The position numbers were made by a program, and so were the translations under genes. Below are positions 1 to 16,462 of a DNA stretch of 17,603 nucleotides, one piece after another. Source of the stretch: a virus. Lineage: Duplodnaviria > Heunggongvirae > Uroviricota > Caudoviricetes. How positions within the stretch are numbered: position 1 is the stretch's first letter; the number at the start of each line of letters is the position of its first letter. The notes beneath the pieces are model-generated. The model did not search any database. It had not been told where the DNA came from and saw only the letters and a program-made list of their open reading frames with translations. The stretch is taken from the IMG/VR virus record IMGVR_UViG_2703718840_000011. One strand, given 5' to 3'.

Positions 1-207
1 ATGCCAAACGGCGCTGTGGACGCGTTAAAGGAAGAATTAACTCGACGCATCAGTAAGCGTTATGACGATGTAGAGGTGATCGTAAAAGCCACCAGCAACG
101 ATGGCCTTTCTGTTACACGCACTGCCGATAAAGATTCAGCTAAAACTTTTGTTCAGGAGACTCTGAAAGATACCTGGGAATCTGCTGACGAGTGGTTTGT
201 TCTCTAA
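1..207 (+). CDS. DinI-family (damage-inducible protein I-like) protein; probably 5'-truncated by the window edge
   Basis: 68-aa ORF ending ...[18 protein letters not shown], matching the conserved C-terminal ETWESADxWF signature of DinI-like proteins. Full-length DinI proteins are about 80 aa, so roughly 12 N-terminal residues appear to be missing. Family call is by motif recognition, not a search. Confidence 0.6.
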
Positions 208-273
208 TTAACACGTAAAATCGGTAACGGCTTGAAATCATTAAATACTCGCCCTATCGAAAGCTCACCAGCC

Positions 274-309
274 AGCCGCAACACGTTCTTACATATGACG
301 TGTCTGCGG
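274..309. repeat. 36-bp imperfect palindrome, copy 1 (AGCCGCAACACGTTCTTACATATGACGTGTCTGCGG)
   Basis: Seen directly: internal inverted arms CCGCAACACGT / ACGTGTCTGCGG. About 83 percent identical (30/36) to a second copy at 2741-2776 in the same orientation. Confidence 0.5.
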
Positions 310-323
310 TTTCAACTCCACCA

Positions 324-357
324 GCCCACCAATCATGATTGGGCTTTTTCGTTTTTC
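324..357 (+). terminator. Putative rho-independent terminator downstream of the DinI-like gene
   Basis: Short GC-containing hairpin (GCCCA ... TGGGC around the palindrome CCAATCATGATTGG) followed by CTTTTTCGTTTTTCTTC on the + strand. Confidence 0.4.
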
Positions 358-486
358 TTCACCTGCAAGCAAACCGTTGTATCATGGCGGAATGAAGATG
401 AGCTAGGAATAATCTTATGAATCAGCTCAATATTCATATAAAAACATTTCGAACTTTGGTGTACAAAACTACATAGGGATAACTTT

Positions 487-1689
487 ATGTCTCTTCGTTT
501 CAGACAAACCTTTACTTTATTTCCTGGCGTTCGACTCAACATTGGCAAGCGTGGAATAAGTGCAAGCATTGGTATGCCTGGCGCAACTGTCAATGTTGGT
601 AAAAAAGGGGTTAGAGCAACTGTCGGATTACCGGGCACAGGCTTATCTTATACTACACCTACCTTGCCCTATGATGATGGATACTCAGTTACCAATCCAT
701 TAAATCCAGCCCCTACAGAACCTCATTTGGGGTCTGGGTCATCTCCAGAAAACACACCATCGAACGCTAAAATATATATGCCTGTAGCTGGCATGAATGA
801 AATATCCAGCGCTTCGGTAGAAGTCCTTACAAGTACCTCCCTTTTACCTTTACGAGATTTGATTGCTAAAGCACGAGAACAAAGAGCAGAGATAAAAGCA
901 GATCTTCAAGAGGCTCTTGCCGAAGAATCAAAACAAAAAAGCGAGCTGGCTCGACGCAAATCAAGTCTATTCCGTTGGTTTTACAAACGACGCATCGCAG
1001 AACTTGAGACACTACTCCCCCTAACCCAAGCTGAGATATCTCGCCTAGTTTCATGGGAAGACAGCACAAAAATAGCCATAACATTCGAGAGCAGTGATGC
1101 TTCACAGCGCGCATATGCAGCGATGGTCCATGCATTTGATATGTTAAAATCGAGTGTCAAAAAATGGGATATTACTGCAGATAAAGCTACAGACCAGTTT
1201 GCTGAAAGAACATTAGCAACCCGGTCTGTTAATCGTCACCCAGTTACCTTTGATTTTAGTTCAACGGATCTCATTCAATTTACAGGGCGTGCGATGAGGT
1301 TTGAAAATGCAAATGGAGACGATATTTTGCTTTATCCTGGAGTTGCAGTCATACCACGAGCCGATGGAGCATTCGCTCTGATTGATTTACGCGAATTACA
1401 AATTAGTTCAGAATATCTAAGATTCCATGAGGAAGAAGGTGTTCCCAGTGACTCACGCATAGATGGTTATACATGGGCGAAAACGAATAAGAATGGCTCA
1501 CCAGACCGTCGTTTTAAAGACAACTACCAAATCCCTATTTGCATTTATGGAAATATTACTTTCCATTCTCAAACAGGGGTAACTGAAGAATATATGGTAT
1601 CAAATGCAGATGCCGCGCACGCCTTTGCTGAGGCAGTAAAACGCTATCAGATTTCACTCACAGAAACAGAAGCGTTGGTACAAGCCTAA
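487..1689 (+). CDS. Hypothetical protein with N-terminal DUF4236-like glycine-rich motif (400 aa)
   Basis: Long ORF with AGGGA about 8 nt upstream of the ATG. N-terminus FRQTFTLFPGVRLNIGKRGISASIGMPGATVNVGKKGVRATVGLPGTGLSY fits the pattern I associate with DUF4236; the remaining ~340 aa have no domain I recognise. AT-rich relative to neighbouring phage genes. Confidence 0.7.
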   Translation: MSLRFRQTFTLFPGVRLNIGKRGISASIGMPGATVNVGKKGVRATVGLPGTGLSYTTPTLPYDDGYSVTNPLNPAPTEPHLGSGSSPENTPSNAKIYMPVAGMNEISSASVEVLTSTSLLPLRDLIAKAREQRAEIKADLQEALAEESKQKSELARRKSSLFRWFYKRRIAELETLLPLTQAEISRLVSWEDSTKIAITFESSDASQRAYAAMVHAFDMLKSSVKKWDITADKATDQFAERTLATRSVNRHPVTFDFSSTDLIQFTGRAMRFENANGDDILLYPGVAVIPRADGAFALIDLRELQISSEYLRFHEEEGVPSDSRIDGYTWAKTNKNGSPDRRFKDNYQIPICIYGNITFHSQTGVTEEYMVSNADAAHAFAEAVKRYQISLTETEALVQA

Positions 1690-1885
1690 TTTATCGCCGA
1701 TATGGGGACGAATCGTAGGTTAAAACCCCTCGAACAAAAAAACCTTAAGAACCAGACTATTATGGCTGGTTCTTATACGGAGGATTTGTTATTGTACAAC
1801 TCTTCTATCTGGTATATTTACGGATAGAACTGTTCGGGCTACTCAATCCTTTTTAAGTACAAATGAACAGATAGAAATAGTTATA

Positions 1886-2688
1886 TTGCAAGGAGCTATC
1901 ATGCACACTGAGTATATATGGCGATATCTTGACATAGAGAAGTTCTCTATGTTACTCGAACAAAATGCTTTATTTTTTTGCTCAGCAAAAAATTTTGAAG
2001 ATCCGTTCGAAGGTGAATTTGCTTGGGGACATACTGGCTATAAAAAATTCATTGAGACACAGGAAAAACTATGCGCTACTCATGGTGCCGGCATGGACTT
2101 AGAGCCTTTCATGGCATTCAATTTAAAGACACTTAAGGAAATAAGCGAGAGGACATATATAAGTTGCTGGCATTGTAACGAACATGAATCTGAAGCTATG
2201 TGGAAGCTGTATTGTAAAAACCCCGCTAAAGGCGTTGTCATAAAATCAAAGAAAAAAACCTCCAAAGCCAACTTGAAAATAATAATCTAAACAAACTACA
2301 ATTAAAACACGTAAAATACATCAAAAATTTCTGGATAAAACAATACAATCCAGAATCAGATGTATTCTTTAACAAGAGACCATCTTTCGAACACGAAAAA
2401 GAGTTTAGAGCTATTTTTCAAGAGAATACCTTTAACACTCCACCTGTAAAGGGAAAATTAGTCCCTGTATCTCTTAATAATCTGTTGGAAGAAATAAGGA
2501 TTTCACCTTTCGCAGATAAGGATTTCAAAAATGAAGTTTTACAAATTTCAAAAAAATATGGACTAGATCTAAAAGTCAAAAACTCTGAAATTGAAATGCA
2601 TCCCATCATGCATGTTGAGGAAGAAATAATTGCAGAAGGCCCCAATTGGTATCAGTCAAAAATCAGGTTGGCAATACGTGATGCTTAA
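1886..2688 (+). pseudogene. DUF2971-like protein gene interrupted by a -1 frame change in an A7 run (track ORFs 1886-2290 and 2485-2688 are the two halves)
   Basis: N-terminal half carries the DUF2971-like signature (RYLDIEKF...LFFCSAKNFEDPFEGE). Frame 1 is open from about 2230 to 2688 and continues the protein sensibly. Adding one A to the A7 run at about 2252-2258 would fuse both halves into one ~267-aa ORF, a typical DUF2971 length. Confidence 0.6.
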
Positions 2689-2740
2689 TCTTATATTGAA
2701 TTTTTTTATGTCTCCTGCTGAAACTAGCTAAAATTTACCA

Positions 2741-2776
2741 AGCCGCAGCACGTTATTGCATACAACGTGTATGCGG
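2741..2776. repeat. 36-bp imperfect palindrome, copy 2 (AGCCGCAGCACGTTATTGCATACAACGTGTATGCGG)
   Basis: Seen directly: 30/36 identity with the copy at 274-309, same orientation. Lies between the stop of the DUF2971-like gene and the stop of tfa (convergent), so it may also act as a hairpin terminator for the minus-strand tail operon. Confidence 0.5.
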
Positions 2777-2791
2777 CGTATCTCAAAACGA

Positions 2792-3376
2792 TTACTCCAT
2801 AACAGGGACAGCAGGCCACTCAATATCCGGTGCTACTGATGTATCAACACGGTTCAGCAACACCCGATACTTTTTCCAGGCTTCCAGCAATGAGGTTTCT
2901 TCCTCCGTTGCAATTTCCAGATCTGCAGCATCCTGAAGCGGCGCAATATGCTCACTGGCTACCTGCATCAGGTTGTTTTTTGTTTCTTCCGCCTCCCGGA
3001 TCCGGAACAGTTTTTCTGCTTCCGTATCCTTCACCCAGGCTGTGCCGTTCCACTTCTGAAACTCCCCTTCCGGCGATAACCAGGTAACATTTTCCGGTAA
3101 CGGACCGAGTTCAGAAATAAATAACTCGTCCCCTGACGCTACGTCATAAACCGTTTTACCCCGATGGTCTTCAACGAGATGCCACGATGCCTCATCACTG
3201 TTGAAAACAGCCACAAAGCCAGCAGGAATATCTGGTGGTGCAATATCGGTACTGTTTGCTGGCAGACCTGTATGAGGCGGAATATATGCGTCACCTTCAC
3301 CAATAAATTCATTAGTTCCGGCCAGCAGATTATAAATTTTTATGGTCCGTGCTTGTTCACTCATTCTGAATGCCAT
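2792..3376 (-). CDS. tfa: Tail fiber assembly protein (Tfa family, lambdoid type)
   Basis: 194-aa [57 protein letters not shown]... closely matches Tfa proteins of E. coli lambdoid prophages as I recall them. Start overlaps the stop of the upstream stf-type ORF (TAATG). Confidence 0.85.
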
Positions 3377-4455
3377 TATGCAAGCCTCACAATATAGTTA
3401 AATGCGATGTTTTTGACGGTGTTTTCCGCGTTACCCGCAGCGTTAACGGTGATGGTGTGTCCATGTGAACCAATCGCAACGGAGTGCGTATGCGCACCAA
3501 TACCTACAGTATGTGCATGTGCGCCAGAACTTGCTGCAGTACCAGACAGCGAGTGGGTATGAGCACCTGCTGACTGTGTCTGAATACGTTGATAATACGA
3601 TCTATAGGAAGAAGTCTCCGGGCTTACTTGATACTGTGAATTCTGGACATAAGTGAACCCACCGCCATCATAAAATGCTAACGCAGAACCGCCGCCTCCT
3701 GGCCAACGAATACCATTACCATGAGTATGAACACCGGCAGACCCCGTAGAGCCACTCAGACTGTGCGTATGCGCCCCGGTGTTATTCGTGGATTTAGTGC
3801 CGTAATCAAACGACGATGTGGTTTTCGTCCCTAAATCCGTACTGGATGCGCTGGCGCTGTGGGTGTGCGATTTAATGCCGTCCTGTTCCTGAGACAATAC
3901 GGCCCGGCCACTGGCGGGTTTGCCCTTGATTGTCCAGCCGCGCATATCTGGAATAACACCTGAAGGATAGGCAATAGCCAGTTTCGGATATGCTGCCTTA
4001 TCAAACGTCTGCCCCTGCATGATTGCATAACCTGCAGGTGGTGTATCTGATGGCCACGGCAGCGGAACACCTGGCGGAAACGCTTCAATATTTGCCGAGC
4101 CGTCAAATTTTACGCCGTTAATTGTCCTTGCAGTTTGCAATTTGGTTGCTGTGCTTGCATTACCCGATAAAGATCCAGTGATACCACCACTCGCGTTTAA
4201 TTTAGTTGCAATTGTAACATTGCCAGTATGGTTACTAATTATAAACGGCCTTAAGCTATTGTGCGTACCAAGACTGTTAAACTCATAACGGTATTTCACG
4301 TTAATCCCGTTCAGATCATCACTACCGGGAACGTTCGTCGAGGCATGGAGATACCCCGCGCTCAGCGTGGACTGATGTTCTGCTGCACTCGCTGGCGTAG
4401 CAGCGGCGACCTGCCAGACTACTGCGGACAAAATAACAGCACATAATTTACGCAT
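3376..4455 (-). CDS. Chimeric ORF: Lom-type signal peptide and N-terminus (~60 aa) fused in frame to the C-terminal part of a side tail fiber (Stf-type) protein
   Basis: N-terminus [59 protein letters not shown] is lambda Lom-like (signal peptide plus first beta strands). The rest is tail-fiber-like ([13 protein letters not shown], repeated HxH motifs, C-terminal [11 protein letters not shown]). Junction near 4270-4285. GAGG RBS upstream of the ATG. Confidence 0.7.
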
Positions 4456-4477
4456 AATTACCTCTCGCTTTTCTGCA

Positions 4478-4504
4478 ATAAAAAAGGCGCCATTTCTGGC
4501 GCCC
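4478..4504 (-). terminator. Rho-independent terminator between J remnant and lom' (tJ-like)
   Basis: On the minus strand: GGCGCC-AGAAAT-GGCGCC hairpin followed by TTTTTTATTGC, located between the J' stop and the lom' RBS. Confidence 0.55.
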
Positions 4505-4522
4505 GTATCTGGGTTATAAAAT

Positions 4523-5660
4523 TCAGCTAATCGTGATGCCTGCAGTGGCTTTCTTCATCACCACAACCAGCAAATCGCTGATACTTGCTGTGGGATACCA
4601 GTTATTTACCAGCCATGCTGACACCGAAAACTCCAGTGTCATGTGACCGTGACCGGCAGGCATATCAATAACACCACTGTAAATCAGCGTATTATCCAGC
4701 GCGGTACGGTTATAAATTTCAGCACCGTTTTTCCGTACTATCAGGCGGCATAACGAATAAATATCGTTATTCTCCCGCTCATGTTTAGCGCCGCTGAATG
4801 CCACCGCCGGAATAACAATCTGCCGGTCAAACGGCTGATCGTCATAAACCCTGACGGTGATGGTCCCTGATGGCCACCGTTCCGGTGCACGGGAGTCCCG
4901 GGGGAAAGCTTTGCCCACTGTTTTAACGAGATCGCCTTCAATCTGGTTGGCGGACAATTTTCCCAGAACCCGACAGTTCTCGTTAATCGTGACGTTGTTG
5001 AGCGTCCCGGAGTTCGCATTCACGTTACCGCTGATATCGGCATTTTTCGCCGTCAGCCGCCCGTCCGGTGTCAGGGAAAATGCCGGAGGATTACCGCCGC
5101 TGGTAATGGTCGGAGCCGTCAGGCGTTTCAGGAACACGTCGTTCATGAATATCTGATCGCCCTGACCAACAAACATCGGCTTTGTGTTGCCATTCGCAGG
5201 ATTAATCATCGCAATCCGGTCAGCAGCCAGAAGCACCTGACTCTGCATACCTGCTGGCGTATTCTCAATACCGGCTCCGATACCCGCAATATAAAGGCGT
5301 CCGTCCTTCATCTGCTGCAGTTTCACGGCCCACATGCTGTTCAGGTTATTATTTGTATCAACCTGAACTTTCTGTATCTGCTGGATTGCCGCACTCTGGT
5401 CTTCCAGTTTTTTATTGACGGTCTGCGTGATTTCATTGCTGACATTCGTAATGGACGTCCTGATTTCAGCCAGGTCCGGCGCAAGCTGACCGTTATCAAT
5501 CTGCGTCCACAACTCCTGGGCCAGATGTGTTTTCCCGATTTCTCCTTTGAAAAAATCCAGGTAACCTTCCGCATCATCGCTCGCCCGACCGACAGCCTCC
5601 ACGAATGCCGATTTGCCAACGGTGTTCACACTGCGAACGTAAAAATAATAATCATGGCCC
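4523..5660 (-). pseudogene. C-terminal ~380-aa fragment of J-type host specificity (central tail fiber) protein; N-terminal two-thirds deleted
   Basis: Translation from ...[39 protein letters not shown]... through [30 protein letters not shown] to the C-terminus matches the C-terminal region of lambda J as I recall it. The first ~34 codons of the track ORF (starting at 5758) are out-of-frame read-through of rusA sequence. Full J proteins are about 1100 aa. Confidence 0.7.
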
Positions 5661-5891
5661 GGTTTGATATTGATACTGGCGGCTATCCGGAGGAAACAAC
5701 ACGATCTCCACTGAAGCAGGTGCCGACGTTGGTTTCGGCAGGCGACGTAACTGCTCAACTATTGCTGCGCACGCCGCGCTCTGGAATTTGCGCCCCGCTG
5801 CGCTTATCAGACTCTTACCAGCAAACGCCCCTTTGTTGGGGTGTCGCCAGTACGTGTTCACGCTGGGCGGAAAAGGCAGGATCAGCTTCAT
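5652..5891 (-). pseudogene. rusA: RusA-family Holliday junction resolvase, N-terminal fragment (truncated at the deletion junction with J)
   Basis: MKLILPFPPSVNTYWRH... matches the RusA N-terminal LPxPPSxN motif. The ORF ends after 79 aa with non-homologous residues (YQYQTGP), whereas RusA is about 120 aa. GAGAGGGG RBS and ATGA overlap with the upstream gene are intact. Confidence 0.55.
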
Positions 5892-6214
5892 ACTTTCAGG
5901 CCCCTCTCATGTAACCAGTGGGCTGCACGCAGCCTGGCGTTTTCCTCACCGGCAAGCAGTGCGCGGATAATCCCGACCGCCTCGCTGTCGTCGTCCTTCA
6001 CAGCGGTATGAAGCGTTATCCCCCGTGCCACGCCACGCTTTATCGTGATGACGCCTTTTTTCTCCAGTGCGCGAAGATGCTCCACCGCTGCATTCACCGA
6101 ACGGTATCCCAGCATGGTTGCCACCTCCTGATTGGTTGGCGGAAAGCCACGCTCTTTCTGGTAAGAAATCAGCATATCCAGCACCTGCTGCTGGCATTGA
6201 GTTAACGTCGTCAT
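5888..6214 (-). CDS. Small winged-helix DNA-binding protein resembling the LexA N-terminal DNA-binding domain (no S24 peptidase domain)
   Basis: 108 aa; QQQVLDMLISYQKERGFPPTNQEVATMLGYRSVNAAVEHLRALEKKGVITIKRGVARGITL parallels the LexA DNA-binding domain (QQEVFDLI...[36 protein letters not shown]). ATGA overlaps at both ends and a GGAG RBS. Confidence 0.55.
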   Translation of the reverse strand: MTTLTQCQQQVLDMLISYQKERGFPPTNQEVATMLGYRSVNAAVEHLRALEKKGVITIKRGVARGITLHTAVKDDDSEAVGIIRALLAGEENARLRAAHWLHERGLKV

Positions 6215-6864
6215 GCCGCCATCTCCCTGACCAGTTTTTCCGCCTGCTGGCGAACCTGCACCAGAAAGGCTTCACCACATGCCTCAAGTTCATCGCGCCC
6301 GATGTAGCTGATTGCCGGTCCCTTCCAGGTCTTGTCGAAAACAGCAATAGCACCAGCGAAGAAAGCGCCTGTCGGCACCTGCTTCTCATCCTTCGGGATA
6401 AACCAGGCAGGCAGTTCAAAACCAATACGCCCGCGAATAAAAGCAATATGGTCCGCATCTTCCGGCCACCACACTTCGCTGGTGGCAGCTTTGATCAGGA
6501 AAACATAGCGCCCGCCCTTATCACGCATGGCACTGGCATGTTTCATGATGTAACGCATGCCGGTGATGTATTGTCCCTCATGCTGACTGGCGCGGCTGTA
6601 TGGGGGATTACCAAAGGCAGCACCTTTAAGCTCCGCAAGACGTTCTGACCAGTCATGCGCCAGCGCGTTATCTTCCGCCGTGTAATACGCGGCACATTTG
6701 GCGTTATCACCGTCAGTAAACAGATCCAGAACAAACGGGCCAAACAGGGTGTTAATTCCCCAGAAAATGTTGTCCGGCGTGCGCCACTGATCGCCCACTT
6801 CCTTCAGTTCATGGGCTGGTTTGTTCCGCAGTTCCACCAGCGCCTGGCAATATTTATTACTCAT
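6211..6864 (-). CDS. Phage-type DNA N6-adenine methyltransferase (Dam family)
   Basis: MSNKYCQALVELRNKPAHELKEVGDQWRTPDNIFWGINTLFGPFVLDLFTDGDNAKCAAYYTAEDNALAHDW... with catalytic NPPY motif (GNPPYS). I place the start at the internal ATG (6864, residue 12 of the track ORF), which overlaps the O-like stop by 1 nt and is preceded by a GGGGG RBS. Confidence 0.8.
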   Translation of the reverse strand: MSNKYCQALVELRNKPAHELKEVGDQWRTPDNIFWGINTLFGPFVLDLFTDGDNAKCAAYYTAEDNALAHDWSERLAELKGAAFGNPPYSRASQHEGQYITGMRYIMKHASAMRDKGGRYVFLIKAATSEVWWPEDADHIAFIRGRIGFELPAWFIPKDEKQVPTGAFFAGAIAVFDKTWKGPAISYIGRDELEACGEAFLVQVRQQAEKLVREMAA

Positions 6865-7817
6865 TAAGCCCCCACGTAATTCCCTGACAGATACCACTCT
6901 TCACCCGATGCAGCGCGCTTGCTGCTTTTCCGTAAACACCGCTCTTCGCGTTTTTCGGTGTACGTGCTGACGGACGGCGATAAGCGCAGGGAAAGCTCAT
7001 CCCATTTTTCCCGCAACTTCGACGGGCTGAGCACGTTACGGCACCAGAACGGATCGCGGCTGACGCGGCTGTACATCTCGCAGATTTGTTTGTGAGTACG
7101 ACCATCCTGCACACACATCAGGCGAATTTCGTTTGCCCAGGCTGTCCAGTTCGGTTCTTTGGGACGAACCACCTCGCCGTCACATTCGGCGGCTTGCTCG
7201 TACAGGGCGATGATTTTTTTCCAGAGCCACTGTGCGCAGGTCAAATCATCCTGCGTTCCCCACTGGCGCTTTTTAGGGCTGAATACAACCGCATCAGGAT
7301 GGCGAGTTAAAAAATCCTGTTCATCCGTCTGCGTGTCCGGTTGCGAAGCGTCCGGACGAGAAGGTTTTTTATCTGACGGATCATGTTTTGATTTTACTGA
7401 CGGATCCCCGCCAGATTCTGACGGGTGAAAACCCGCTTTTTTGCCAGATTTCGACGCATCAAATTTTGACGGGTCAGATTTTGATGCGTCAGATTTTGAC
7501 GGGTCAGAATCTGACAGTTGAGAAAATGCCGCTGCCTGAAGCTTCGCAACGTTAAGCTGATAAACATTCGACGCATTGCGGTTACCCTGGCGACGCGCCT
7601 TACGCGTTAACCAGCCTTCTGCTTCCAGCCGTGCGATAGCCGTTCTGACGGTACTCATCCCCGCGCCAATCTGACGGGCAATGGTTTCAATTGATGGCCA
7701 GCACACACCTTCGTCATTACTGAAATCAGCCAGGCGGGCCATAATTGCCACGCTGGATAATTTCATGCCTGATGCAGCGCAACCATCCCATACATAGCCG
7801 GTTAATTTAGTGCTCAT
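6864..7817 (-). CDS. Replication initiator, lambda O-like (N-terminal wHTH origin-binding domain, repetitive acidic linker, C-terminal domain)
   Basis: 317 aa; N-terminus MSTKLTGYVWDGCAASGMKLSSVAIMARLADFSNDEGVCWPSIETIARQIGAGMSTVRTAIARLEAEGWL is typical of phage replication O-type HTH domains. An internal repetitive linker (SDSDPSKSDASKSDPSKFDASKSGKK) is encoded by an iteron array. GAGG RBS 6 nt upstream. Confidence 0.7.
   Translation of the reverse strand: MSTKLTGYVWDGCAASGMKLSSVAIMARLADFSNDEGVCWPSIETIARQIGAGMSTVRTAIARLEAEGWLTRKARRQGNRNASNVYQLNVAKLQAAAFSQLSDSDPSKSDASKSDPSKFDASKSGKKAGFHPSESGGDPSVKSKHDPSDKKPSRPDASQPDTQTDEQDFLTRHPDAVVFSPKKRQWGTQDDLTCAQWLWKKIIALYEQAAECDGEVVRPKEPNWTAWANEIRLMCVQDGRTHKQICEMYSRVSRDPFWCRNVLSPSKLREKWDELSLRLSPSVSTYTEKREERCLRKSSKRAASGEEWYLSGNYVGA
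7369..7517. repeat. Iteron array (candidate phage origin of replication) inside the O-like gene
   Basis: Seen directly: about 8 copies of a ~15-bp unit with core (A/C)AGATTTTGACGGGTC. The last five (about 7445-7517) are strictly tandem: cagatttcgacgcat / caaattttgacgggt / cagattttgatgcgt / cagattttgacgggt / cagaatctgacag. Parallels ori-lambda, which lies within O. Confidence 0.55.
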
Positions 7818-7826
7818 GACCGACCT

Positions 7827-8165
7827 CTACTTCCCTGAATTTACGACGAAACTGTTCGAGCGGGCTGAAGCACTCATGCTCATAGCCTTCGCGGAGGTAG
7901 ATAACCCGTTGTGTTTCCGGCTCCCAACGAATGACTCTGACGGGCACTCCGTAGTGATCTTTGAACCAGCGGTTAACTTGTCGCAAAGGACTGTCTCCTT
8001 CTGCCGGTTGAAATCACCCACAGCCCACTCTGCAAAGCTGTGGGTTACAATTTCCCTGTCACCTGGTACATTTACTGCATAGCAATACTCCACCTTCGCT
8101 TTTCCACCCGGTACAGGAAGTGCAATCAGTTGCGAGCGACGGTAGTGTGTTGTTAAACTGTTCAT
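7827..8165 (-). CDS. Hypothetical protein (112 aa) between cII-like and O-like genes
   Basis: Start overlaps the cII-like stop (ATGA) and the stop lies 10 nt before the O-like start. The C-terminal third is low-complexity, so the true extent is uncertain. No family recognised. Confidence 0.4.
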
Positions 8166-8776
8166 GCGTTAGTTTCTCCACAACCAGAAGCAATCGACGC
8201 CACGACGCCCGGAGCTGCACACTCGCGGGCGTCATTACTTTCTGAAATGCAAAAAATTTTGTAGACAAGTGCTGCATGCTCCTGCAGCTTCGAAATTGAG
8301 AGATACAGCTCGTCGTTAATTGCTGTCTTCTCATGCGGTTCCACTACACCGTCTTCGATTGCTGAACGAATCTGTTTTGAATAACTGCCGATCTGTTCAA
8401 TGACTTCCAGCAGACGCTGGTTAATATCGGCGTTGTCCACATCCTCGACGTCAGGAAGAGACACAAAGACGCCATTTGCAGACTGCGCCACAGCATCAGC
8501 AATGAAGTGAGTTCCACCAGCACGTTGCAAAATCATTGCCCATCCCAGCGGGAAAATCTGATCGCCATCAGCACGAAGGCGGTTAAATAATGCGTTCTCT
8601 GTTACATCCAGCCAGTCAGCTGCTTCAGCGTAACCACCCGGCAACTTTGCGATAGTTTTTCTGACAGCTTTCACGTACCACTCAGGCTGTTTTTCTACTT
8701 TCCAGTGATGCTTACCCACGGTTAGCCTCATCGTTCTGTGGTTTCTGTTAATCGATTTATCCATTAGATTTTTCAT
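8162..8776 (-). CDS. CII-like regulatory protein (phage 186 CII / YdaT-like); start uncertain
   Basis: Sits immediately downstream of cro. The segment [25 protein letters not shown] resembles the 186-CII-type motif (LRNKLNPEQPHQFTPPELWLL). The track ORF begins at a GTG (8833) inside cro; in-frame ATGs at about 8776, 8764 and 8731 are more plausible, none with a strong SD. Confidence 0.45.
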
Positions 8777-8957
8777 AAAGCTCAGGTTTAAATGGCAACC
8801 GTCCGCAAGTTCTATATGCAGCTTCTGCTGCACGTCCTTTTGGAATTAACTGGCCCGGACGGTTTCGCCACTGATAAACGGCTTCAGTTGTTATGCCGAA
8901 AAAAGCAGCAACTTTCTCAATACTGCCGAAGTAGCTTTCGATATCGTCAGTTGTCAT
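8757..8957 (-). CDS. Cro-like small HTH regulator (YdaS-type)
   Basis: 66 aa, divergent from the cI-like repressor with a ~97-bp operator-containing intergenic region; GGAGGG RBS. HTH-like segment VAAFFGITTEAVYQWRN. Confidence 0.65.
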   Translation of the reverse strand: MTTDDIESYFGSIEKVAAFFGITTEAVYQWRNRPGQLIPKGRAAEAAYRTCGRLPFKPELYEKSNG

Positions 8958-9054
8958 ACGCCCTCCAAACTAAGTTTTATTAGATGCTAATTACAAATCT
9001 ATCTTTGGTCAATAAAAACTAAGATTACTTAGCAATTCAAGAAATGGTGCTCCT
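8958..9054. promoter_or_regulatory. Immunity switch region (OR-like): divergent promoters with palindromic operator candidates
   Basis: Palindromes TTAGATGCTAA (about 8980-8990) and CTAAGATTACTTAG (about 9019-9032); ACTAAG repeated at about 8969 and 9018. Candidate minus-strand promoter TTGACC-17 bp-TAGCAT whose -10 overlaps the first palindrome. Confidence 0.4.
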
Positions 9055-9681
9055 ATGGAAACGGTTGGTCAGCGTATAAAAGCTCTGAGAAGAGTTACCA
9101 GAACGTCCCAGAAAGAATTGGGTAAATTTTGTGGAGTAAGCGACGTTGCTGTGGGGTACTGGGAGAAAGACATCAATACCCCTGGTGGGGAGGCACTTTC
9201 GAAATTAGCGAAGTTCTTCAATACGTCAATAGATTACATTCTTTATGGTGCTGAGTTTGAAGGCAAACTCGTCACAAACATGCGCAGAGTTCCTGTAATA
9301 TCGTGGGTTCAGGCTGGGCAGTTTACTGAGTGCAGGGCAGCAGAAGTGTTTAGTGAAGTGGACAAGTGGGTAGATACATCATTAAAGATTGGTGATAACT
9401 CATTTGCATTAGAGGTTAAAGGTGACTCCATGACTAACCCTAATGGCCTCCCAACAATACCAGAAGGCGCAACAGTGATTGTAGATCCAGATGCAGAACC
9501 TCGTCATGGAAAAATAGTCATCGCTCGACTTGATGGAACAAACGAAGCTACAGTAAAAAAATTAGTCATCGATGGCCCTCAAAAGTTTTTAGTGCCATTA
9601 AATCCTCGGTATCCCAACATCCCTATCAATGGTAATTGCCTTATCATTGGTGTAGTCAAAGGAGTTCAATACGAACTCTAA
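9055..9681 (+). CDS. cI-like prophage repressor (N-terminal XRE-type HTH, C-terminal S24 LexA-like autopeptidase)
   Basis: 208 aa; HTH QKELGKFCGVSDVAVGYWEKD; C-terminal domain with Ser nucleophile in GDSMTNP and Lys in ATVKKLVIDG, the hallmark of RecA-stimulated self-cleaving repressors. Confidence 0.85.
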   Translation: METVGQRIKALRRVTRTSQKELGKFCGVSDVAVGYWEKDINTPGGEALSKLAKFFNTSIDYILYGAEFEGKLVTNMRRVPVISWVQAGQFTECRAAEVFSEVDKWVDTSLKIGDNSFALEVKGDSMTNPNGLPTIPEGATVIVDPDAEPRHGKIVIARLDGTNEATVKKLVIDGPQKFLVPLNPRYPNIPINGNCLIIGVVKGVQYEL

Positions 9682-9695
9682 GACCTCTCTTCTCT

Positions 9696-9763
9696 AACTA
9701 AGGCACCGAACTAAGAAAAGTTTGGTGTTTTCTCTTGCCATAATAACTAAGTTAAGTTAGATT
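9696..9763 (+). promoter_or_regulatory. PL-like early-left promoter/operator candidate immediately downstream of cI
   Basis: Three AACTAAG copies (about 9696, 9709, 9745), sharing the ACTAAG core seen in the cI-cro intergenic region. Candidate promoter TTGCCA (about 9735-9740), 17-bp spacer containing AACTAAG, TAGATT (about 9758-9763). Confidence 0.35.
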
Positions 9764-9865
9764 TTATGTCAAAGATAACGAACAGGCAGGACGCCCACGA
9801 AGTAGCCGCCGGTGGCGTATGAATGACCGGATGATTCGTTAAATACTATGTGTAAGAGAGCGCAA

Positions 9866-10068
9866 ATGAACCGTTATTTCACATGCTCGTTTTGTGGCGC
9901 AAACGAGCTGCAGGCAAAAAAATCATCGCCAAAGGCGGAAAAGATGAAGTTGCTATCTGCTCTGAGTGCGTAGTCTTGTGTGTCGGAGCATTAATCAATA
10001 TCAGCACAACTATTCAGTTCACACCAAATGAGAATGCGCCTTTAGATGCGCGGAAATCTGGAGGTTAA
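9866..10068 (+). pseudogene. Small ClpX-N-terminal-type C4 zinc-finger protein ORF, split by a -1 frame change at an A7 run (slippery heptamer A AAA AAA)
   Basis: ATG at about 9866 opens MNRYFTCSFCGANELQAKK..., which stops after 35 codons. The track ORF 9883-10068 in the -1 frame continues ...KKIIAKGGKDEVAICSECVVLCVGAL. Joined, they give CSFCG...ICSECVVLC, similar to the ClpX zinc-binding domain (YCSFCGKSQHEV...YICDECVDLC). The frames meet in the A7 run at about 9916-9922. Confidence 0.5.
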
Positions 10069-10076
10069 AGAACAAA

Positions 10077-10352
10077 ATGAAAGTCCAGATTTTAAACAAT
10101 AGTGGTGAAGTCGTTTGGTCATACGACATAGCCGCTCCTGTAGATCAGAGCGGCGATAGCTGGACCAATGGGAAACATCAGATTATGGCTGGAGTTGTAT
10201 TCTCTTTACACCGTGCTTTGGAACAGGCTGAAGTATTTCCATCAGACCCTGAATGGAAATGGCCTTTTTCTATTTGTCCAAATTCGGAGAGCACATTTCA
10301 GAAAATTGGTCAGAAAGTCGCACTCGAAGAGCATCAGCCAACTGTTTTCTGA
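10077..10352 (+). CDS. Hypothetical protein (91 aa)
   Basis: GGAGG about 10 nt upstream of the ATG and immediately after the stop of the zinc-finger ORF, which is operon-like. No family recognised. The 3' end overlaps a convergent ORF. Confidence 0.45.
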   Translation: MKVQILNNSGEVVWSYDIAAPVDQSGDSWTNGKHQIMAGVVFSLHRALEQAEVFPSDPEWKWPFSICPNSESTFQKIGQKVALEEHQPTVF

Positions 10353-10515
10353 TTTTTTCAGGTAACTCGTCGGCATCGCAGAAACAACAACGCTCGATCA
10401 TGTTGAAAGCCGATTCGTAGAACTGTTTCTGCTGAGTGTCGCTGAGACAGGAAAAGAGCGACGTTACGATGATTTTATTAATTGCATTATCAAGTTCTTT
10501 TTCATCAAAAGTCAT
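10270..10515 (-). CDS. Hypothetical protein (81 aa), convergent to the early-left operon
   Basis: Plausible amino-acid composition; AAGGAAAA RBS-like sequence 5-6 nt upstream of the ATG. Its 3' end overlaps the + strand 91-aa ORF by about 83 bp, so one of the two is probably shorter or not real. Confidence 0.35.
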   Translation of the reverse strand: MTFDEKELDNAINKIIVTSLFSCLSDTQQKQFYESAFNMIERCCFCDADELPEKIRKQLADALRVRLSDQFSEMCSPNLDK

Positions 10516-10769
10516 TTGATTTTCCTTTTATGTATACGGGCTTAAAAGGATACCACCGAGCCTGAAGTGGTGAAAAGACAGGCACATAACAGCTAAGTAT
10601 TTTCAACCAGAGAGAATCCTTAGCGTTGTGGTGAATGCGGCTCAGCGCACGCGGGTTAAGGTTGAGGCTGACAGTCGACCTTCTGTGGATACCCACCCGT
10701 CTGGTGTGCAACCTTCGCCAGGCACCGGGAGGCACCCGGCACCACAACTTTATGCTGTGTGTAGTCCTG

Positions 10770-10815
10770 GCGGTACCAGTTTGTACCCTTGCTTCCGGCT
10801 GGTACCGCTCTTTTT
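10770..10815 (+). terminator. Rho-independent terminator inside the early-left transcription unit
   Basis: GCGGTACCAG - 19-nt loop - CTGGTACCGC followed by TCTTTTTAC, a 10-bp perfect stem with a T-run on the + strand. Confidence 0.5.
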
Positions 10816-10904
10816 ACAAAACAGAGAAGAGCATCACCGGACGACGGGCTCATAACCCAATCCATCCGGGCGGCTGCCACCGCAGGTGTTCTTCTCTGTT
10901 TTGT
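10816..10904 (+). other. Large stem-loop: perfect 15-bp inverted repeat (ACAAAACAGAGAAGA ... TCTTCTCTGTTTTGT) separated by ~59 nt of GC-rich sequence, in the leader of the yfdP-like gene
   Basis: Seen directly, immediately after the terminator T-run and about 50 nt before the next gene's RBS. The stem can extend by a few pairs and the interior contains sub-hairpins. Confidence 0.45.
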
Positions 10905-10952
10905 GGAGAAACCAACCGACCTTGCAGGGTCGATATGATGAGGAGCAGCAAA

Positions 10953-11315
10953 ATGGCTAGCGAACGCAGTACTGATGTGCAGGCATTTATCGGGGAGCTG
11001 GACGGCGGCGTATTTGAAACCAAAATCGGCGCAGTTCTCAGTGAAGTCGCTTCCGGTGTGATGAACACGAAAACCAAAGGTAAGGTCTCGCTCAACCTGG
11101 AAATCGAACCGTTTGATGAGAACCGTGTGAAAATAAAACATAAACTCTCATATGTTCGCCCGACTAACCGCGGGAAAATTTCCGAAGAAGACACCACCGA
11201 AACACCGATGTATGTCAATCGCGGTGGTCGCCTGACTATTCTGCAGGAAGACCAGGGACAATTACTGACTCTTGCCGGTGAACCTGACGGAAAACTCCGC
11301 GCAGCAGGTCATTAA
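10953..11315 (+). CDS. Hypothetical protein, 120 aa (YfdP-like by position and length)
   Basis: Start chosen at the internal ATG preceded by GAGGAG with 7-nt spacing. The long track ORF from 10635 is an artefact of GC-rich structured sequence upstream. Length and position match what I recall for yfdP of CPS-53; the sequence identity is not confirmed. Confidence 0.55.
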   Translation: MASERSTDVQAFIGELDGGVFETKIGAVLSEVASGVMNTKTKGKVSLNLEIEPFDENRVKIKHKLSYVRPTNRGKISEEDTTETPMYVNRGGRLTILQEDQGQLLTLAGEPDGKLRAAGH

Positions 11316-11379
11316 TATCGTTTTTAATTAACTGATTATTTATCTCATCACTGAATATTTTATATAGTGAGGACTGATT

Positions 11380-12204
11380 ATGTCTCAGAACTTAGACGCA
11401 ACCGCAATTAATCAAATCCATGCCCTTATTTCTGCTCAGGGTGTTAATGAAATTATCAGTAAGATTGGTGCCGATGCTGTGGCATTGCCTGAGAATTTCC
11501 GCATTCATGATCTGGAAAAATTTAATTTAAATCGCTTCCGTTTCCGTGGTGCGCTTTCCACTGCCAGCATCGATGACTTTACCCGTTATTCTAAAGATCT
11601 TGCAGATGAAGGCACCCGCTGCTTTATCGATGCTGATAATATGCGTGCCGTCAGTGTGCTTAACCTGGGTACTATTGATGAACCAGGTCACGCAGATAAC
11701 ACCGCCACTCTCAAACTGAAAAAGACAGCACCGTTCTCTGCCCTGTTGTCTGTTAACGGCGAGCGTAACTCCCAGAAGTCACTGGCAGAATGGATTGAAG
11801 ACTGGGCCGACTACCTTGTGGGCTTTGATGCTAATGGTGACGCCATTCAGGCAACCAAAGCTGCTGCGGCGATCCGTAAAATCACAATTGAAGCGAACCA
11901 GACCGCTGATTTTGAAGATAATGACTTCAGCGGCAAACGCTCCCTGATGGAGTCTGTCGAAGCGAAGACCAAAGACATTATGCCTGTGGCATTTGAATTT
12001 AAATGCGTTCCGTTTGAAGGTCTGAAAGAACGTCCGTTTAAATTACGCCTCAGCATTATCACTGGCGATCGTCCTGTACTGGTTCTGCGCATTATTCAGC
12101 TGGAAGCGGTGCAGGAAGAAATGGCTAACGAATTTCGTGATCTGCTTGTTGAGAAATTCAAAGACAGCAAAGTAGAAACCTTTATTGGTACTTTCACCGC
12201 CTGA
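11380..12204 (+). CDS. yfdQ: YfdQ-like prophage protein (274 aa), function unknown
   Basis: 274-aa ORF with GAGGA RBS. Length, N-terminus ([14 protein letters not shown]...) and the yfdP-Q-R-S-T gene order match my recollection of the CPS-53/KplE1 yfdQ gene. Symbol given on that recollection, not a search. Confidence 0.7.
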
Positions 12205-12216
12205 TTTCATTACTGC

Positions 12217-12240
12217 AAATGCCCCTGCGGGGGCATTTAT
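12217..12240 (+). terminator. Hairpin (AAATGCCCC-TGCG-GGGGCATTT) after the yfdQ-like gene; weak terminator or attenuator
   Basis: 9-bp GC-rich stem seen directly, with only a short T tract (ATTTAT). Confidence 0.35.
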
Positions 12241-12331
12241 GGAAACGTAATTAACTCAATAATCACCGGATGGTGAGGGCTTCCTTTTACCAGAATTCAG
12301 CGCGGTGCAGTGCATATACGTGGAGAATAAA

Positions 12332-12868
12332 ATGTCATTTATTAAAACTTTTTCCGGGAAGCATTTTTATTATGACAAGATAAATAAAGACGACATCGAT
12401 ATTAACGATATCGCGGTTTCCCTTTCAAATATCTGTCGCTTTGCCGGTCATCTTTCGCACTTCTACAGCGTCGCCCAACATGCGGTTCTTTGCAGCATGC
12501 TGGTGCCGCAGGAATTTGCTTTTGAAGCGTTAATGCATGATGCAACAGAAGCGTATTGCCAGGACATCCCGGCTCCACTGAAACGCCTTCTTCCTGACTA
12601 TAAACGGATGGAAGAAAAAATAGACGCCGTAATCCGTGAGAAATACGGGTTACCCCCGGTTATGAGCACGCCCGTGAAATATGCCGATCTCATCATGCTG
12701 GCAACCGAACGCCGCGATCTCGGGCTTGATGATGGCTCTTTCTGGCCTGTACTGGAAGGTATCCCGGCAACAGAGATGTTCAAAGTGATTCCACTGTCGC
12801 CAGGCCATGCCTATGGGATGTTTATGGAACGTTTTAACGAGTTATCGGAGTTACGCAAATGCGCATGA
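12332..12868 (+). CDS. yfdR: HD-domain phosphohydrolase (YfbR-type 5'-deoxynucleotidase fold), YfdR-like
   Basis: Start at the internal ATG (MSFIKTFSGKHFYYDKIN) preceded by GGAGAATAAA, giving 178 aa. H...HD metal-binding motifs (SVAQHAV, ALMHDATEAY). Confidence 0.75.
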   Translation: MSFIKTFSGKHFYYDKINKDDIDINDIAVSLSNICRFAGHLSHFYSVAQHAVLCSMLVPQEFAFEALMHDATEAYCQDIPAPLKRLLPDYKRMEEKIDAVIREKYGLPPVMSTPVKYADLIMLATERRDLGLDDGSFWPVLEGIPATEMFKVIPLSPGHAYGMFMERFNELSELRKCA

Positions 12869-13221
12869 ATGTTTTCGAAATGGAAGGGTTTCTTCGCGGG
12901 AAATGTGTACCGCGAGATCTGAAAGTGAACGAAACAAATGCTGAGTACCTAGTACGTAAATTCGACGCGCTTGAAGCTAAATGTGCGGCACTGGAAAACA
13001 AAATAATACCAGTGTCAGCTGAACTGCCACCTGCAAATGAAAGTGTTCTGTTATTTGATGCTAACGGAGAAGGCTGGCTAATTGGCTGGCGTTCTCTCTG
13101 GTACACCTGGGGACAAAAAGAAACCGGAGAATGGCAGTGGACATTTCAGGTCGGGGACCTTGAAAACGTCAATATCACTCACTGGGCAGTAATGCCGAAA
13201 GCACCGGAGAATAAGAAATGA
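12859..13221 (+). CDS. yfdS: YfdS-like hypothetical protein (120 aa)
   Basis: Start overlaps the yfdR-like stop (translationally coupled). Length and order match my recollection of yfdS. Confidence 0.65.
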   Translation: MRMNVFEMEGFLRGKCVPRDLKVNETNAEYLVRKFDALEAKCAALENKIIPVSAELPPANESVLLFDANGEGWLIGWRSLWYTWGQKETGEWQWTFQVGDLENVNITHWAVMPKAPENKK

Positions 13222-13433
13222 GCGTGATAAAAACTCATACAGGAATTGTTATTACCCGAAACGGTCCGCAGGTAAAAAAACTGCACCAGACAAAGCGGAT
13301 GTGGGTCGTCGGAGAAAACGAGTTTTACCACAAAGAAACCGGACGCCGCCACTTTGCAGAAAATACGCGCCGCCGACTGCTCCTGGACAGCATCAGGCCA
13401 ATTAAACAGGTAGCAACCAGAGAACAAAATTAA
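13218..13433 (+). CDS. Hypothetical small basic protein (71 aa) in the yfdT position
   Basis: ATGA overlap with the upstream gene. K/R-rich. Shorter than the ~100 aa I recall for yfdT, so no symbol assigned. Confidence 0.5.
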   Translation: MSVIKTHTGIVITRNGPQVKKLHQTKRMWVVGENEFYHKETGRRHFAENTRRRLLLDSIRPIKQVATREQN

Positions 13434-13494
13434 TTATCAGGACTGAAATTTGATATTACTGCCCGTGTGCAGCGGGTTAAGTGGAGAAACAGCC

Positions 13495-13704
13495 ATGGCA
13501 AAACTAATGAAAGCGAGCCAATGGGGACGCCGTGAATTCTCTAATGGCTCAATTCCTGACAACCGAACGATAAAACGCTGGGTCGAGAACGGTCTGCTCA
13601 TGGGGCGTATAGTGGACGGTTCTGTTTTTGTCTGCGAAACAGAAAAATGGGGAGTCGACTCAATGGTTAGTCAAGCTGTTCGCAAGTTAATAAATGAGGG
13701 ATGA
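13495..13704 (+). CDS. xis: Excisionase (lambda Xis-type)
   Basis: KASQWGRREFSNGSIPDNRTIKRWVENGLLMGRIVDGSVFVCETEKWGV parallels lambda Xis (LQEWNARQRRPRSLETVRRWVRECRIFPP...GREYLFHESAVKV). Start chosen at the ATG with GGAG 8 nt upstream. Its stop overlaps the integrase start. Confidence 0.6.
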   Translation: MAKLMKASQWGRREFSNGSIPDNRTIKRWVENGLLMGRIVDGSVFVCETEKWGVDSMVSQAVRKLINEG

Positions 13705-14885
13705 CCATGGCGGCAAGGCCACGTAAAAAAGAATACAGACATCTTCCTGATTATCTGGTTTTTGATAAAGATCGAGGTGTTTATAAATTCACACTTATTA
13801 CCGGAAAAAAGAAAAATATAGGTAAGGATCGGGCAATAGCCGTTGCAATCGCCAGAGAGTACAACCTGAGGATGCGATCAGAATTATACCCATCAGTGGA
13901 TAATCTTATTAGAGAATCTGGCGGGGTCACCGGAGAAGCAAAACCATTTGCTGAACATGTCGATCACATAATGGCCAGAATTATCGAAGACGAACGACCT
14001 TCCCAGAGTACCTTAGATGACTGGAAAAATGACGCTCTACGCGTAAAAGCATTTTTCGTAAATGTTCCGGCATGCGATATCGAACTTGAACACGTTAATG
14101 CCTACATCAACAAATATCATGCCAGCGCATCCGCAAATGTGCAGAACAGAAAGGTCAGCTTTCTTAAAAAGTTGTTCTCTTATGCGGTCGATGAATCACT
14201 AATGCAGGATAACCCGGCCATCAGAAAAAAAATGCGTAGGACTGATGAGAAGAAAAGACGGCGCCTGTCACTCGAGCATTTTATAGCTATCAGGCAGGCC
14301 GCTGCACCATGGTTAAGAACAGCAATGGACCTAGCATTGCAGACTACACATGCACGACTCGAAGTATCGCGAATCCGTTACTCAATTCGCGAACCTAAAG
14401 ACGGTTTATGTGGATGTGTTTGGTTCGAACAACCACAAAATGGCATATATGGTACACTATACATCCATAGGCAAAAAGTACAAAAAAAGGAGGCATCACA
14501 TGTTGCAATACCAATTGGTGAAGAATTGAAACGGATAATTGACAATAGCCGTGACAATGTGGCCAGTCCCTTTGTCGTTCATAGAATCCCAGAACGGCAT
14601 GTTAAACGCAGTAAAGAGGTTTCGCACCCAACTCAAGTTGCACCAGATTATTTGAGTCGGTCATTCTCTTCCGTGCGAGACAAACTCGGACTATGCAATC
14701 ATCTAGCAATGGAACAAAGACCTACATTCCATGAAATAAGAGCTTTGGCAGCTCACCTATTTGATAAACAAGGGATTGATCCGCAGGGACGAATGGCACA
14801 TAGCGATGCGAAATCTACTAAAATTTATACTAAAAATCATATAGATTGGATTGTTGTCCCTCATGGAGAAATTAAAACCGGTTAG
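13701..14885 (+). CDS. int: Tyrosine-type site-specific integrase (lambda Int family)
   Basis: 394 aa. C-terminal catalytic region with H-x-x-R (TFHEIRALAAHLF) and the tyrosine motif (MAHSDAKSTKIYTKNH). Arm-binding-like N-terminus. Xis immediately upstream. Confidence 0.9.
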   Translation: MTMAARPRKKEYRHLPDYLVFDKDRGVYKFTLITGKKKNIGKDRAIAVAIAREYNLRMRSELYPSVDNLIRESGGVTGEAKPFAEHVDHIMARIIEDERPSQSTLDDWKNDALRVKAFFVNVPACDIELEHVNAYINKYHASASANVQNRKVSFLKKLFSYAVDESLMQDNPAIRKKMRRTDEKKRRRLSLEHFIAIRQAAAPWLRTAMDLALQTTHARLEVSRIRYSIREPKDGLCGCVWFEQPQNGIYGTLYIHRQKVQKKEASHVAIPIGEELKRIIDNSRDNVASPFVVHRIPERHVKRSKEVSHPTQVAPDYLSRSFSSVRDKLGLCNHLAMEQRPTFHEIRALAAHLFDKQGIDPQGRMAHSDAKSTKIYTKNHIDWIVVPHGEIKTG

Positions 14886-15022
14886 TTATTAAATTCTCCA
14901 CTTTATTTTGACTGACAATAACGGTTGCTAAGGCATAGAGTAAAGCTTAATTTAAAAGGCAGTTCTATGCCCATTTACCATAACTCCTCCCTTGTCCAGA
15001 AAGCAATATTTATTAATAAAAT

Positions 15023-15985
15023 TTATTTACCCTTATTATACTCTTCAGTAATCTTATTCATGGATGATATATATTTATCCAGCCCACCATAGTTGGCTAT
15101 CATTCGAAATGAATTACGGTACTCTGCCATTTTCACATCATGATTAGTAATTCCACACCAGCCACAAACTTTATTTTCCATGTTTAAAGGCTCATAACAT
15201 TTTTTACATTGCCTTGATGCAGGTATTATATTGCCATTAATAAATTGGTGTGATTTGAGATTTTGAGATAAAAGAAATGGTGTAGTTGTTGTTTTTCCTA
15301 TTACCATTTCGAAATATCTACATTTAGCCTTTTTAGCTAAAGATTGAATTTTCTGCTTTAATAAATCATTTGATTTGTGCCCAACTATAACTCCAGTTAT
15401 ACAATTAATCGGTACCGGAAGGAGCATAAGATTGTCATTCAGTTTAGTAAGTGCTTTCTCATTAATTATTACGCGACGTTCCTGCTCATAACTCCAGCAA
15501 GTTTGTTTTGTCAAATATGCGGCTGTCATTATACAGGATTGTAGCCAGTAGATATAACGAGGTTTACAGATATGAAATGCTCTCGCCAGAATGTCTTCAA
15601 TACCTGTATCTGGAGAATCTTTATATTCAACATCTGCTATTGAACTATGATCCTGGAAGCCGATTTCATCCAAATACTTTTTAAACTTCTCCTCATTAAT
15701 CTCTATTACAAAACCAGAAGAATTACCTGCATAATGTGCCCACATAGGTGGTATCACAGGGCTTTTCGTAAAACAAGTTGCTGGTTGTTTTGTAACCATG
15801 CCAATCATTTCATTGTAAAATGCTAACTCATCAGAACCGCGATTAAAATCAATAGTAAGGAAAAACTCATAGGGATCATTATATTCATGTAAATGAGAGA
15901 ATTTTATTCCTATATGTGTTTCATCCATCATCAATTTATCAATTATATCCGCTCCCATAAACTTATACAAATTGGTCATATACAA
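15023..15985 (-). CDS. DUF2971-family protein with C-terminal CxxC...CxxC zinc ribbon (320 aa)
   Basis: N-terminal NLYKFMGADIIDKL...IKFSHLHEYNDPYEF matches the DUF2971 hallmark (LYKY...FS.P..FNDPFE). C-terminus CKKCYEPLNMENKVCGWCG. AAGGAG RBS 7 nt upstream. Strongly AT-rich gene and flanks. Confidence 0.75.
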   Translation of the reverse strand: MYMTNLYKFMGADIIDKLMMDETHIGIKFSHLHEYNDPYEFFLTIDFNRGSDELAFYNEMIGMVTKQPATCFTKSPVIPPMWAHYAGNSSGFVIEINEEKFKKYLDEIGFQDHSSIADVEYKDSPDTGIEDILARAFHICKPRYIYWLQSCIMTAAYLTKQTCWSYEQERRVIINEKALTKLNDNLMLLPVPINCITGVIVGHKSNDLLKQKIQSLAKKAKCRYFEMVIGKTTTTPFLLSQNLKSHQFINGNIIPASRQCKKCYEPLNMENKVCGWCGITNHDVKMAEYRNSFRMIANYGGLDKYISSMNKITEEYNKGK

Positions 15986-16065
15986 CTCCTTTTTTATAAA
16001 ATAACATTTTAAATCATATGATTATGGAGGCACAAAATCCAGTAATTAGTTTTCAAGCCGGTTGT

Positions 16066-16428: not shown

Positions 16429-16430
16429 TA

Positions 16431-16458
16431 AAATTGGCCTCAAATGAGGCCAATTTTG
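16431..16458. terminator. Bidirectional rho-independent terminator (perfect palindrome AATTGGCCTCA-AA-TGAGGCCAATT flanked by A- and T-runs)
   Basis: Seen directly: AAAATTGGCCTCAAATGAGGCCAATTTTGG. Lies between the integrase remnant (+) and the convergent minus-strand operon. Confidence 0.6.
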
Positions 16459-16462
16459 GGGA

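Follow-up and report, generated by a model that had tools for sequence, protein, structure and literature searches.

The window, by which we mean the whole 17,603-nt stretch of viral DNA analysed here, carries on its minus strand a single unbroken open reading frame that runs from 4455 to 3376 in the ORF list and encodes 359 residues, exactly where the original prediction had placed a fusion of lom and stf. In Pfam searches Ail_Lom matches residues 1-63 (E 3e-30), though just over positions 1-64 of its 199-position profile; the Collar domain of phage tails matches residues 129-176, and the HxH repeats of Phage_fiber lie C-terminal of Collar. Residues 94-359 align by phmmer with residues 2-242 of PDB 2XGF chain A (E 5e-81), and the chain ends ...NYIVRLA. 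Its stop codon overlaps the start codon of tfa as TAATG; this gene, identified by its Caudo_TAP match (Table 1) and without a single mismatch to the same stretch of Escherichia coli CT282, is the intact tfa that had been predicted to follow.

The chimera thus has the Collar domain, HxH needle repeats and C-terminal head domain of an Stf/gp37-type fibre, with the gene for the tail fibre assembly chaperone adjoining downstream, and it lacks Stf residues 1-708, that is, the N-terminal tail-attachment domain and the shaft. Pfam finds no prophage tail fibre N-terminal domain in the ORF, whereas intact relatives are annotated with one. From the Ail/Lom family (PF06316) it has an N-terminal Sec signal peptide, as judged from the sequence (n-region MRK, a hydrophobic core and ASA followed by A), and it lacks both the complete eight-stranded barrel of about 175 mature residues and the C-terminal aromatic residue: intact Lom ends ...VGIGYRF, and the Lom C terminus is deleted in the chimera. 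An aromatic C-terminal motif is the insertion signal of outer-membrane proteins. What remains of Lom is the signal peptide plus 35 mature residues, which by analogy with OmpX and Ail would amount to about the first beta-hairpin.

Table 1. Features of the window and its alignment to the intact prophage of E. coli CT282 (L004)
Feature	Window position	Strand	Basis or remark
lom'-'stf chimeric ORF, 359 aa, KJJ70863.1	3376..4455	-	ORF list; Pfam Ail_Lom, Collar and Phage_fiber; exact database match
lom-derived part (lom nt 1-178, aa 1-59)	4278..4455	-	100% identity to lom of L004, L006 and VT1-Sakai
Putative Lom signal peptide, aa 1-24 (MRK / 16-residue hydrophobic core / TPASA)	4384..4455	-	read from sequence; identical to intact Lom
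lom-stf deletion junction, shared dinucleotide TA	4278..4279	-	three-way alignment; overlapping BLAST segments
stf-derived part (Stf aa 709-1008 and stop)	3376..4279	-	99.95% DNA and 100% protein identity to CT282 Stf WP_000216486.1
Receptor-binding tip of T4 gp37 type: aa 94-359, with collar, HxH needle and head	3379..4176	-	phmmer to 2XGF; Collar domain
tfa, intact gene for tail fibre assembly	2792..3376	-	Pfam Caudo_TAP, E 3e-44
Intrinsic terminator-like hairpin between J' and lom start	4485..4504	-	consensus scan: 8-bp stem, 6 GC pairs, T-run
J', 3' third of tail-tip gene J (from J nt 2315)	4523..5688	-	Pfam Phage_Tail_Tip and Ig_GpJ_C; 99.86% to strain 203740 J
rusA cut after codon 69 of 129 and continued out of frame by J sequence	5652..5891	-	
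rusA'-'J deletion junction, microhomology GGATA, ~27.4 kb missing	5684..5688 (block overlap 5680-5688)	-	
Second in-frame fusion, replication-type HTH protein and YfdN end	6864..7817	-	477-bp deletion, junction 6943/6944
Collinear block 1	1-4279		L004 1110-5388, 99.95% identity
Collinear block 2	4278-5688		L004 8085-9495, 96.6% identity
Collinear block 3	5680-6944		L004 36923-38187, 99.9% identity
Collinear block 4	6943-17603		L004 38665-49325, 100% identity

In E. coli CT282 (NZ_CP095798.1, locus L004) an intact sister of this element occupies the same site, yejM/proL, between tRNA-Pro/yejM and an integrase; it has the gene order of the window, and the window aligns to it as four collinear blocks. 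Residues 1-59 of the chimera are 100% identical to CT282 Lom, which is 199 residues long when intact, and the last 300 residues are 100% identical to residues 709-1008 of CT282 Stf, a protein of 1008 residues; the lom fragment is identical in both intact references, L004 and the prophage of strain 203740 (L006). The prediction of some 59 Lom-like residues that switch in frame into a tail-fibre C terminus with HxH repeats therefore holds to the residue. Relative to L004 the lom-stf deletion measures 2,698 bp and has its ends at lom nt 178 and stf codon 709. Across the breakpoints the parental sequences are GAGTTTA/CGG in lom and CGGGTA/ACAG in stf, the window has GAGTTTAACAG, and TA is common to both parents. 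The starts of lom and stf in the intact prophage do not share a frame, and as 2698 leaves a remainder of 1 on division by 3, the join is in frame. The alignment to intact lom and stf that had been proposed as a check locates the junction at window 4278/4279, and the exact in-frame deletion that had been postulated is one 2,698-bp deletion with TA microhomology when compared with the sister prophage. Both halves can thus be traced to adjacent intact genes joined at a short microhomology, as in a fusion pseudogene. A Qin-type cassette (L001, below) was considered as the source and rejected: the window's lom fragment is 8 nt longer than that of L001, and its J sequence is 99.86% identical to intact J and only 90.7% identical to the J of L001.

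The same element has suffered two further deletions, of ~27.4 kb (rusA to J) and 477 bp, which gives it the other inactivating lesions (rusA'-'J and yfdN) typical of the surroundings of a fusion pseudogene. The larger loss runs from rusA codon 69 to J nt 2314, its joint is out of frame, and the genes that it removed, by comparison with CT282, are the antiterminator, lysis, packaging, head and most tail genes. The smaller one fused residues 1-291 (of 313) of an HTH protein to the last 26 residues of YfdN, a protein of the PerC family. Because of these deletions the element is unable to make virions, which leaves the fibre tip without any tail to join: J nt 1-2314, the head and lysis genes and most tail genes are gone. 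All 48 mismatches to CT282 in block 2 lie within J (window 4752-5645), and they vanish against the intact J of E. coli 203740 (99.86% identity), because of which we conclude that the ancestor carried another J allele; by its sequence the J allele is mosaic, against 99.9-100% identity to CT282 in the remainder of the element. Since the flanks are nearly identical to the intact prophage (99.95-100% over 4.3 and 10.7 kb), the deletion events are, on this sequence comparison, recent.

Several other features of the window deserve a record. Uncharacterised cargo-like ORFs lie on the plus strand at 1886-2688, between tfa and a DUF4236 gene, and beyond the integrase the minus strand of 15023-17603 encodes a DUF2971 protein and two overlapping hypothetical ORFs; both segments are identical to CT282. 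Five Chi sites (GCTGGTGG) occur at window 89, 318, 6478, 6834 and 8514, and 0.38 were expected in 17.6 kb from shuffles.

If the fusion is made, its fate would be set by the Lom leader at one end and the fibre tip at the other. The highest 12-residue Kyte-Doolittle mean in the signal peptide is 2.17, at residues 5-16, and by the -3/-1 rule cleavage would fall between ASA and AEH. The lom gene is transcribed in lambda lysogens (PMC1151598; PMC7067206). A consensus scan of the minus strand between the terminator-like hairpin and the lom ATG found no promoter in this short spacer, so expression can be proposed only by analogy with lambda. Export of the fibre tip is plausible from its leader. Formation or insertion of an outer-membrane barrel would be impossible with only 35 mature Lom residues and the C-terminal barrel signal gone. 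Tips of the gp37 type require a gp38/Tfa chaperone to trimerise (PMC9659904), and Tfa has no signal peptide. An expressed chain would therefore probably end either in the periplasm, without Tfa and unassembled, or captured by Tfa in the cytoplasm, unexported, with no apparent way to the cell surface. A role for an exported fibre tip is unlikely.

The junction itself is rare. The exact 359-residue protein is KJJ70863.1, which GenBank names 'side tail fiber protein from bacteriophage origin', and it occurs in one contig (2 samples) among about 15 billion proteins. That contig, JYHP01000079.1, is a 7.66-kb piece of an E. coli draft assembly; it matches window 3359-11020 with 100% identity and may not be independent of the window. 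No place spanning the junction was found among 5,426 complete E. coli genomes and no such record among 50,697 phage records, so that, again as in a fusion pseudogene, there is no conservation past one lineage. A literature search returned no description of a lom-stf fusion.

Junctions between lom and stf as such are another matter. They recur in Qin-site, Rac-site and other remnants and in metagenomes, each at a different position, which weakens the original description of the chimera as unusual. In L001, a Qin-site remnant of E. coli Res13 strains, lom is cut at nt 170 and the junction makes a TAA stop; in L009, a Rac-site remnant, it is cut at nt ~165 and the junction again makes a stop; and in L008 it is cut at nt ~222 and the join is out of frame. 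In-frame joins are found in a metagenome contig (L108, 125 aa), where Lom 1-84 precedes the last ~41 Stf residues, and in two database proteins, P0006 (400 aa, Lom 1-~118) and P0079 (571 aa, Lom 1-85). These last three are the only other Lom-bearing fibres found, each with its own junction and each seen once, and together with the window they make four independent in-frame Lom-Stf fusions. P0006 and P0079 came from a protein search, which detects in-frame fusions only. The DNA search, which takes no account of frame, gave five junctions; those of the window and L108 are in frame and the other three (L001, L009 and L008) are out, and 2/5 is about the 1/3 expected by chance. The Lom breakpoint of L108 (aa 84) adjoins that of P0079 (aa 85), and their stf entry points differ. 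Five more proteins (P0032, P0039, P0043, P0065 and P0084) join the same Stf C terminus to portal, tape-measure, DUF977 or minor tail L domains, which suggests many different deletion fusions ending in stf. Among metagenomic lom copies, 106 of the 110 evaluable ones are full length.

Taken together, these observations make the chimera, with a probability of about 0.88, a by-product of prophage decay, a recent deletion remnant that is most likely neutral. On this reading illegitimate recombination at the 2-nt microhomology TA cost a lambdoid prophage at yejM/proL the 2,698 bp that separate lom nt 178 from stf codon 709, and as this length is 1 modulo 3, two reading frames became one. No measurement made here contradicts it, though the four in-frame fusions and the clustered lom breakpoints (below) are caveats. 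The fusion may be transcribed as lom is in lambda lysogens; if so, the Lom signal peptide could route it through Sec into the periplasm, where, parted from cytoplasmic Tfa, it would most likely misfold and be degraded, or stay inert. The existence of the fusion is explicable without any function. The original prediction had left two outcomes side by side, and of these the neutral remnant is favoured by the recent date, the single contig and a frame distribution at chance, while the selected exported adhesin-like protein is not.

That second outcome, a functional protein expressed from the lysogenic promoter of lom, exported by the Lom signal peptide and using a gp37-type tip in the envelope for adhesion or as a decoy against superinfecting phages, has some points in its favour: no damage is seen in the signal peptide, in the complete collar-needle-head tip or in the overlapping tfa, lom is transcribed in lambda lysogens as noted, and in-frame Lom-Stf fusions arose at least four times. 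We consider it very unlikely, given that one contig only is on record, against none of the 5,426 complete genomes, that selection has had too little time since the deletion to leave a mark, and that the frames of the junctions ascertained from DNA fit chance. Nor does the predicted product suit the task: with the ...GYRF barrel signal lost behind 35 mature residues it has no apparent way across the outer membrane, its tip would be separated from the Tfa on which trimerisation depends, and the receptor surfaces that such tips bind face outward, away from the periplasm. Just as improbable, in our view, is a broader proposal in which the 5' end of lom is kept as a self-contained export unit expressed in lysogens, fusions that set a complete gp37-type tip behind it would yield an envelope-targeted tip that binds OmpC or LPS in transit or on the surface and so confers phage exclusion or adhesion, and the clustering of breakpoints at lom nt 165-178 (below) would reflect selection or a directed process. 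A mis-join during assembly between repeated prophage sequences is conceivable in a genome where lom, stf and tfa are multi-copy (a median of 5 matching places per E. coli genome), but the junction lies inside a separate 7.66-kb contig that is 100% identical to the window, assemblers do not produce mis-joins at a 2-nt overlap, and the same element has two other clean deletions; an artefact is exceedingly improbable. There is practically no chance that the Lom-like N terminus is instead the native leader of a tail-fibre family, a possibility that the original prediction had named as its refutation. Nothing beyond the three other Lom-fibre chimeras speaks for it, and these are singletons with junctions at Lom aa 84, 85 and ~118. 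Over its 178 nt the lom part does not differ from the lom genes of intact prophages and phage VT1-Sakai, the intact Stf proteins in the chimera's 626-member 90% cluster have an N-terminal domain other than Lom, and the listed members of that cluster, like the listed top matches, are fibres with normal or partial N termini.

A further reading keeps the decay remnant as it stands and adds that lom nt 165-178 and J nt 2315 are hot spots of sequence-directed breakage and joining. Four independent lom breakpoints fall within 14 nt (nt 165-178, window 4278-4291), at the carets in GTGAAATA^CCGTTA^T^GAGTTTA^. They belong to L009 (~3918), L001 (4404), the PPompW prophages (L061; L136:5171) and the window; the partner sequence differs in each, comprising three stf positions and one type III effector locus, and three of the four read TA/AC at the junction. 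PPompW prophages occur in EHEC (L136, LC567822.1, 5001-8645); in them lom is cut at nt 171 and a cluster of type III effector genes (espO, nleG, espM) replaces the 3' part of lom, stf and tfa, and the 108-residue Lom' ORF carries the annotation 'hypothetical'. Likewise, the J' fragments of the window (5684-5689) and L001 (3001-3004) start within 0-5 nt of each other, at J nt 2315, with unlike left flanks (rusA' in the window, portal' in L001) and alleles that are only 90.7% identical. The cluster in lom may point to a process that is not random, or to the 5' end of lom being retained. Against hot spots stand several results: none of the five Chi sites in the window lies near 4278 or 5688, which led us to reject Chi as the cause; hairpins were rejected too, folding at the lom and J breakpoints being no different from shuffles (z -1.3 and -1.0); only 1 of the 110 evaluable metagenomic copies is broken in this lom stretch; and further lom breakpoints lie elsewhere (nt ~222, ~255 and ~354). 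A lom anchor scan of species-representative genomes gave 5 copies, all intact at the breakpoint site, and when the intact J segment was compared with all complete E. coli genomes, the best place in each record was a full-length J, so that this comparison speaks neither for nor against a J hot spot. We regard hot spots as doubtful, and the clustering in lom and J may be due to chance: the sample is small and partly biased by ascertainment, the cases having been found in part through ranking on similarity to the window.

The fusion itself is of little consequence, being a new instance of a known process by which prophage decay yields fusion ORFs. It is, however, a clean and datable case of an in-frame ORF made by decay that annotation pipelines name as a gene ('side tail fiber protein'), and in practice it serves to caution annotators. 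It also provides a natural test case of a Sec signal peptide placed on a chaperone-dependent trimeric fibre tip, with parents known to the nucleotide. The point that could grow is the apparent clustering of independent deletion ends in lom and J across unrelated remnants.

Among known systems the parent is the intact J-lom-stf-tfa module (CT282 L004, 203740 L006 and lambda), which has the same site and gene order and 96.6-100% DNA identity; compared with it the window is without lom nt 179-600, the lom-stf spacer, stf codons 1-708, and the head, lysis and most tail genes. The Qin-type lom'/'stfQ remnant (L001; compare K-12 StfQ, b1547, 320 aa, beside nohA) is likewise a defective lambdoid prophage in which part of J, the 5' part of lom, an stf shortened at its N terminus and a complete tfa survive, and its lom breakpoint is 8 nt from that of the window, with the J' start in nearly the same place. 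In L001, however, a TAA stop follows Lom codon 56 and makes lom' and 'stfQ separate pseudogenes, stf is entered at a different, more upstream point, the left flank is portal' rather than rusA', and tfaQ is followed by pinQ, a pin gene being absent from the window. P0006, P0079 and L108 share with the chimera the in-frame fusion of the Lom signal peptide and N terminus to an Stf C terminus, and differ from it in where they leave Lom and enter stf. To the T4 gp37 tip (2XGF) the resemblance spans the whole crystallised fragment, HxH motifs and C terminus included, and the chimera has an equivalent of its iron-binding HxH needle, but gp37 is part of a trimeric fibre that is assembled in the cytoplasm and carried on the virion, while in the chimera the tip comes after a Sec signal peptide with 35 residues of Lom, and shaft and tail are missing. 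The stf frameshift of lambda PaPa (orf401/orf314) differs in being a frameshift rather than a deletion fusion and in leaving lom untouched, and it offers a parallel in a dispensable side-fibre gene inactivated by a simple lesion (PMC9659904; PMC10695390).
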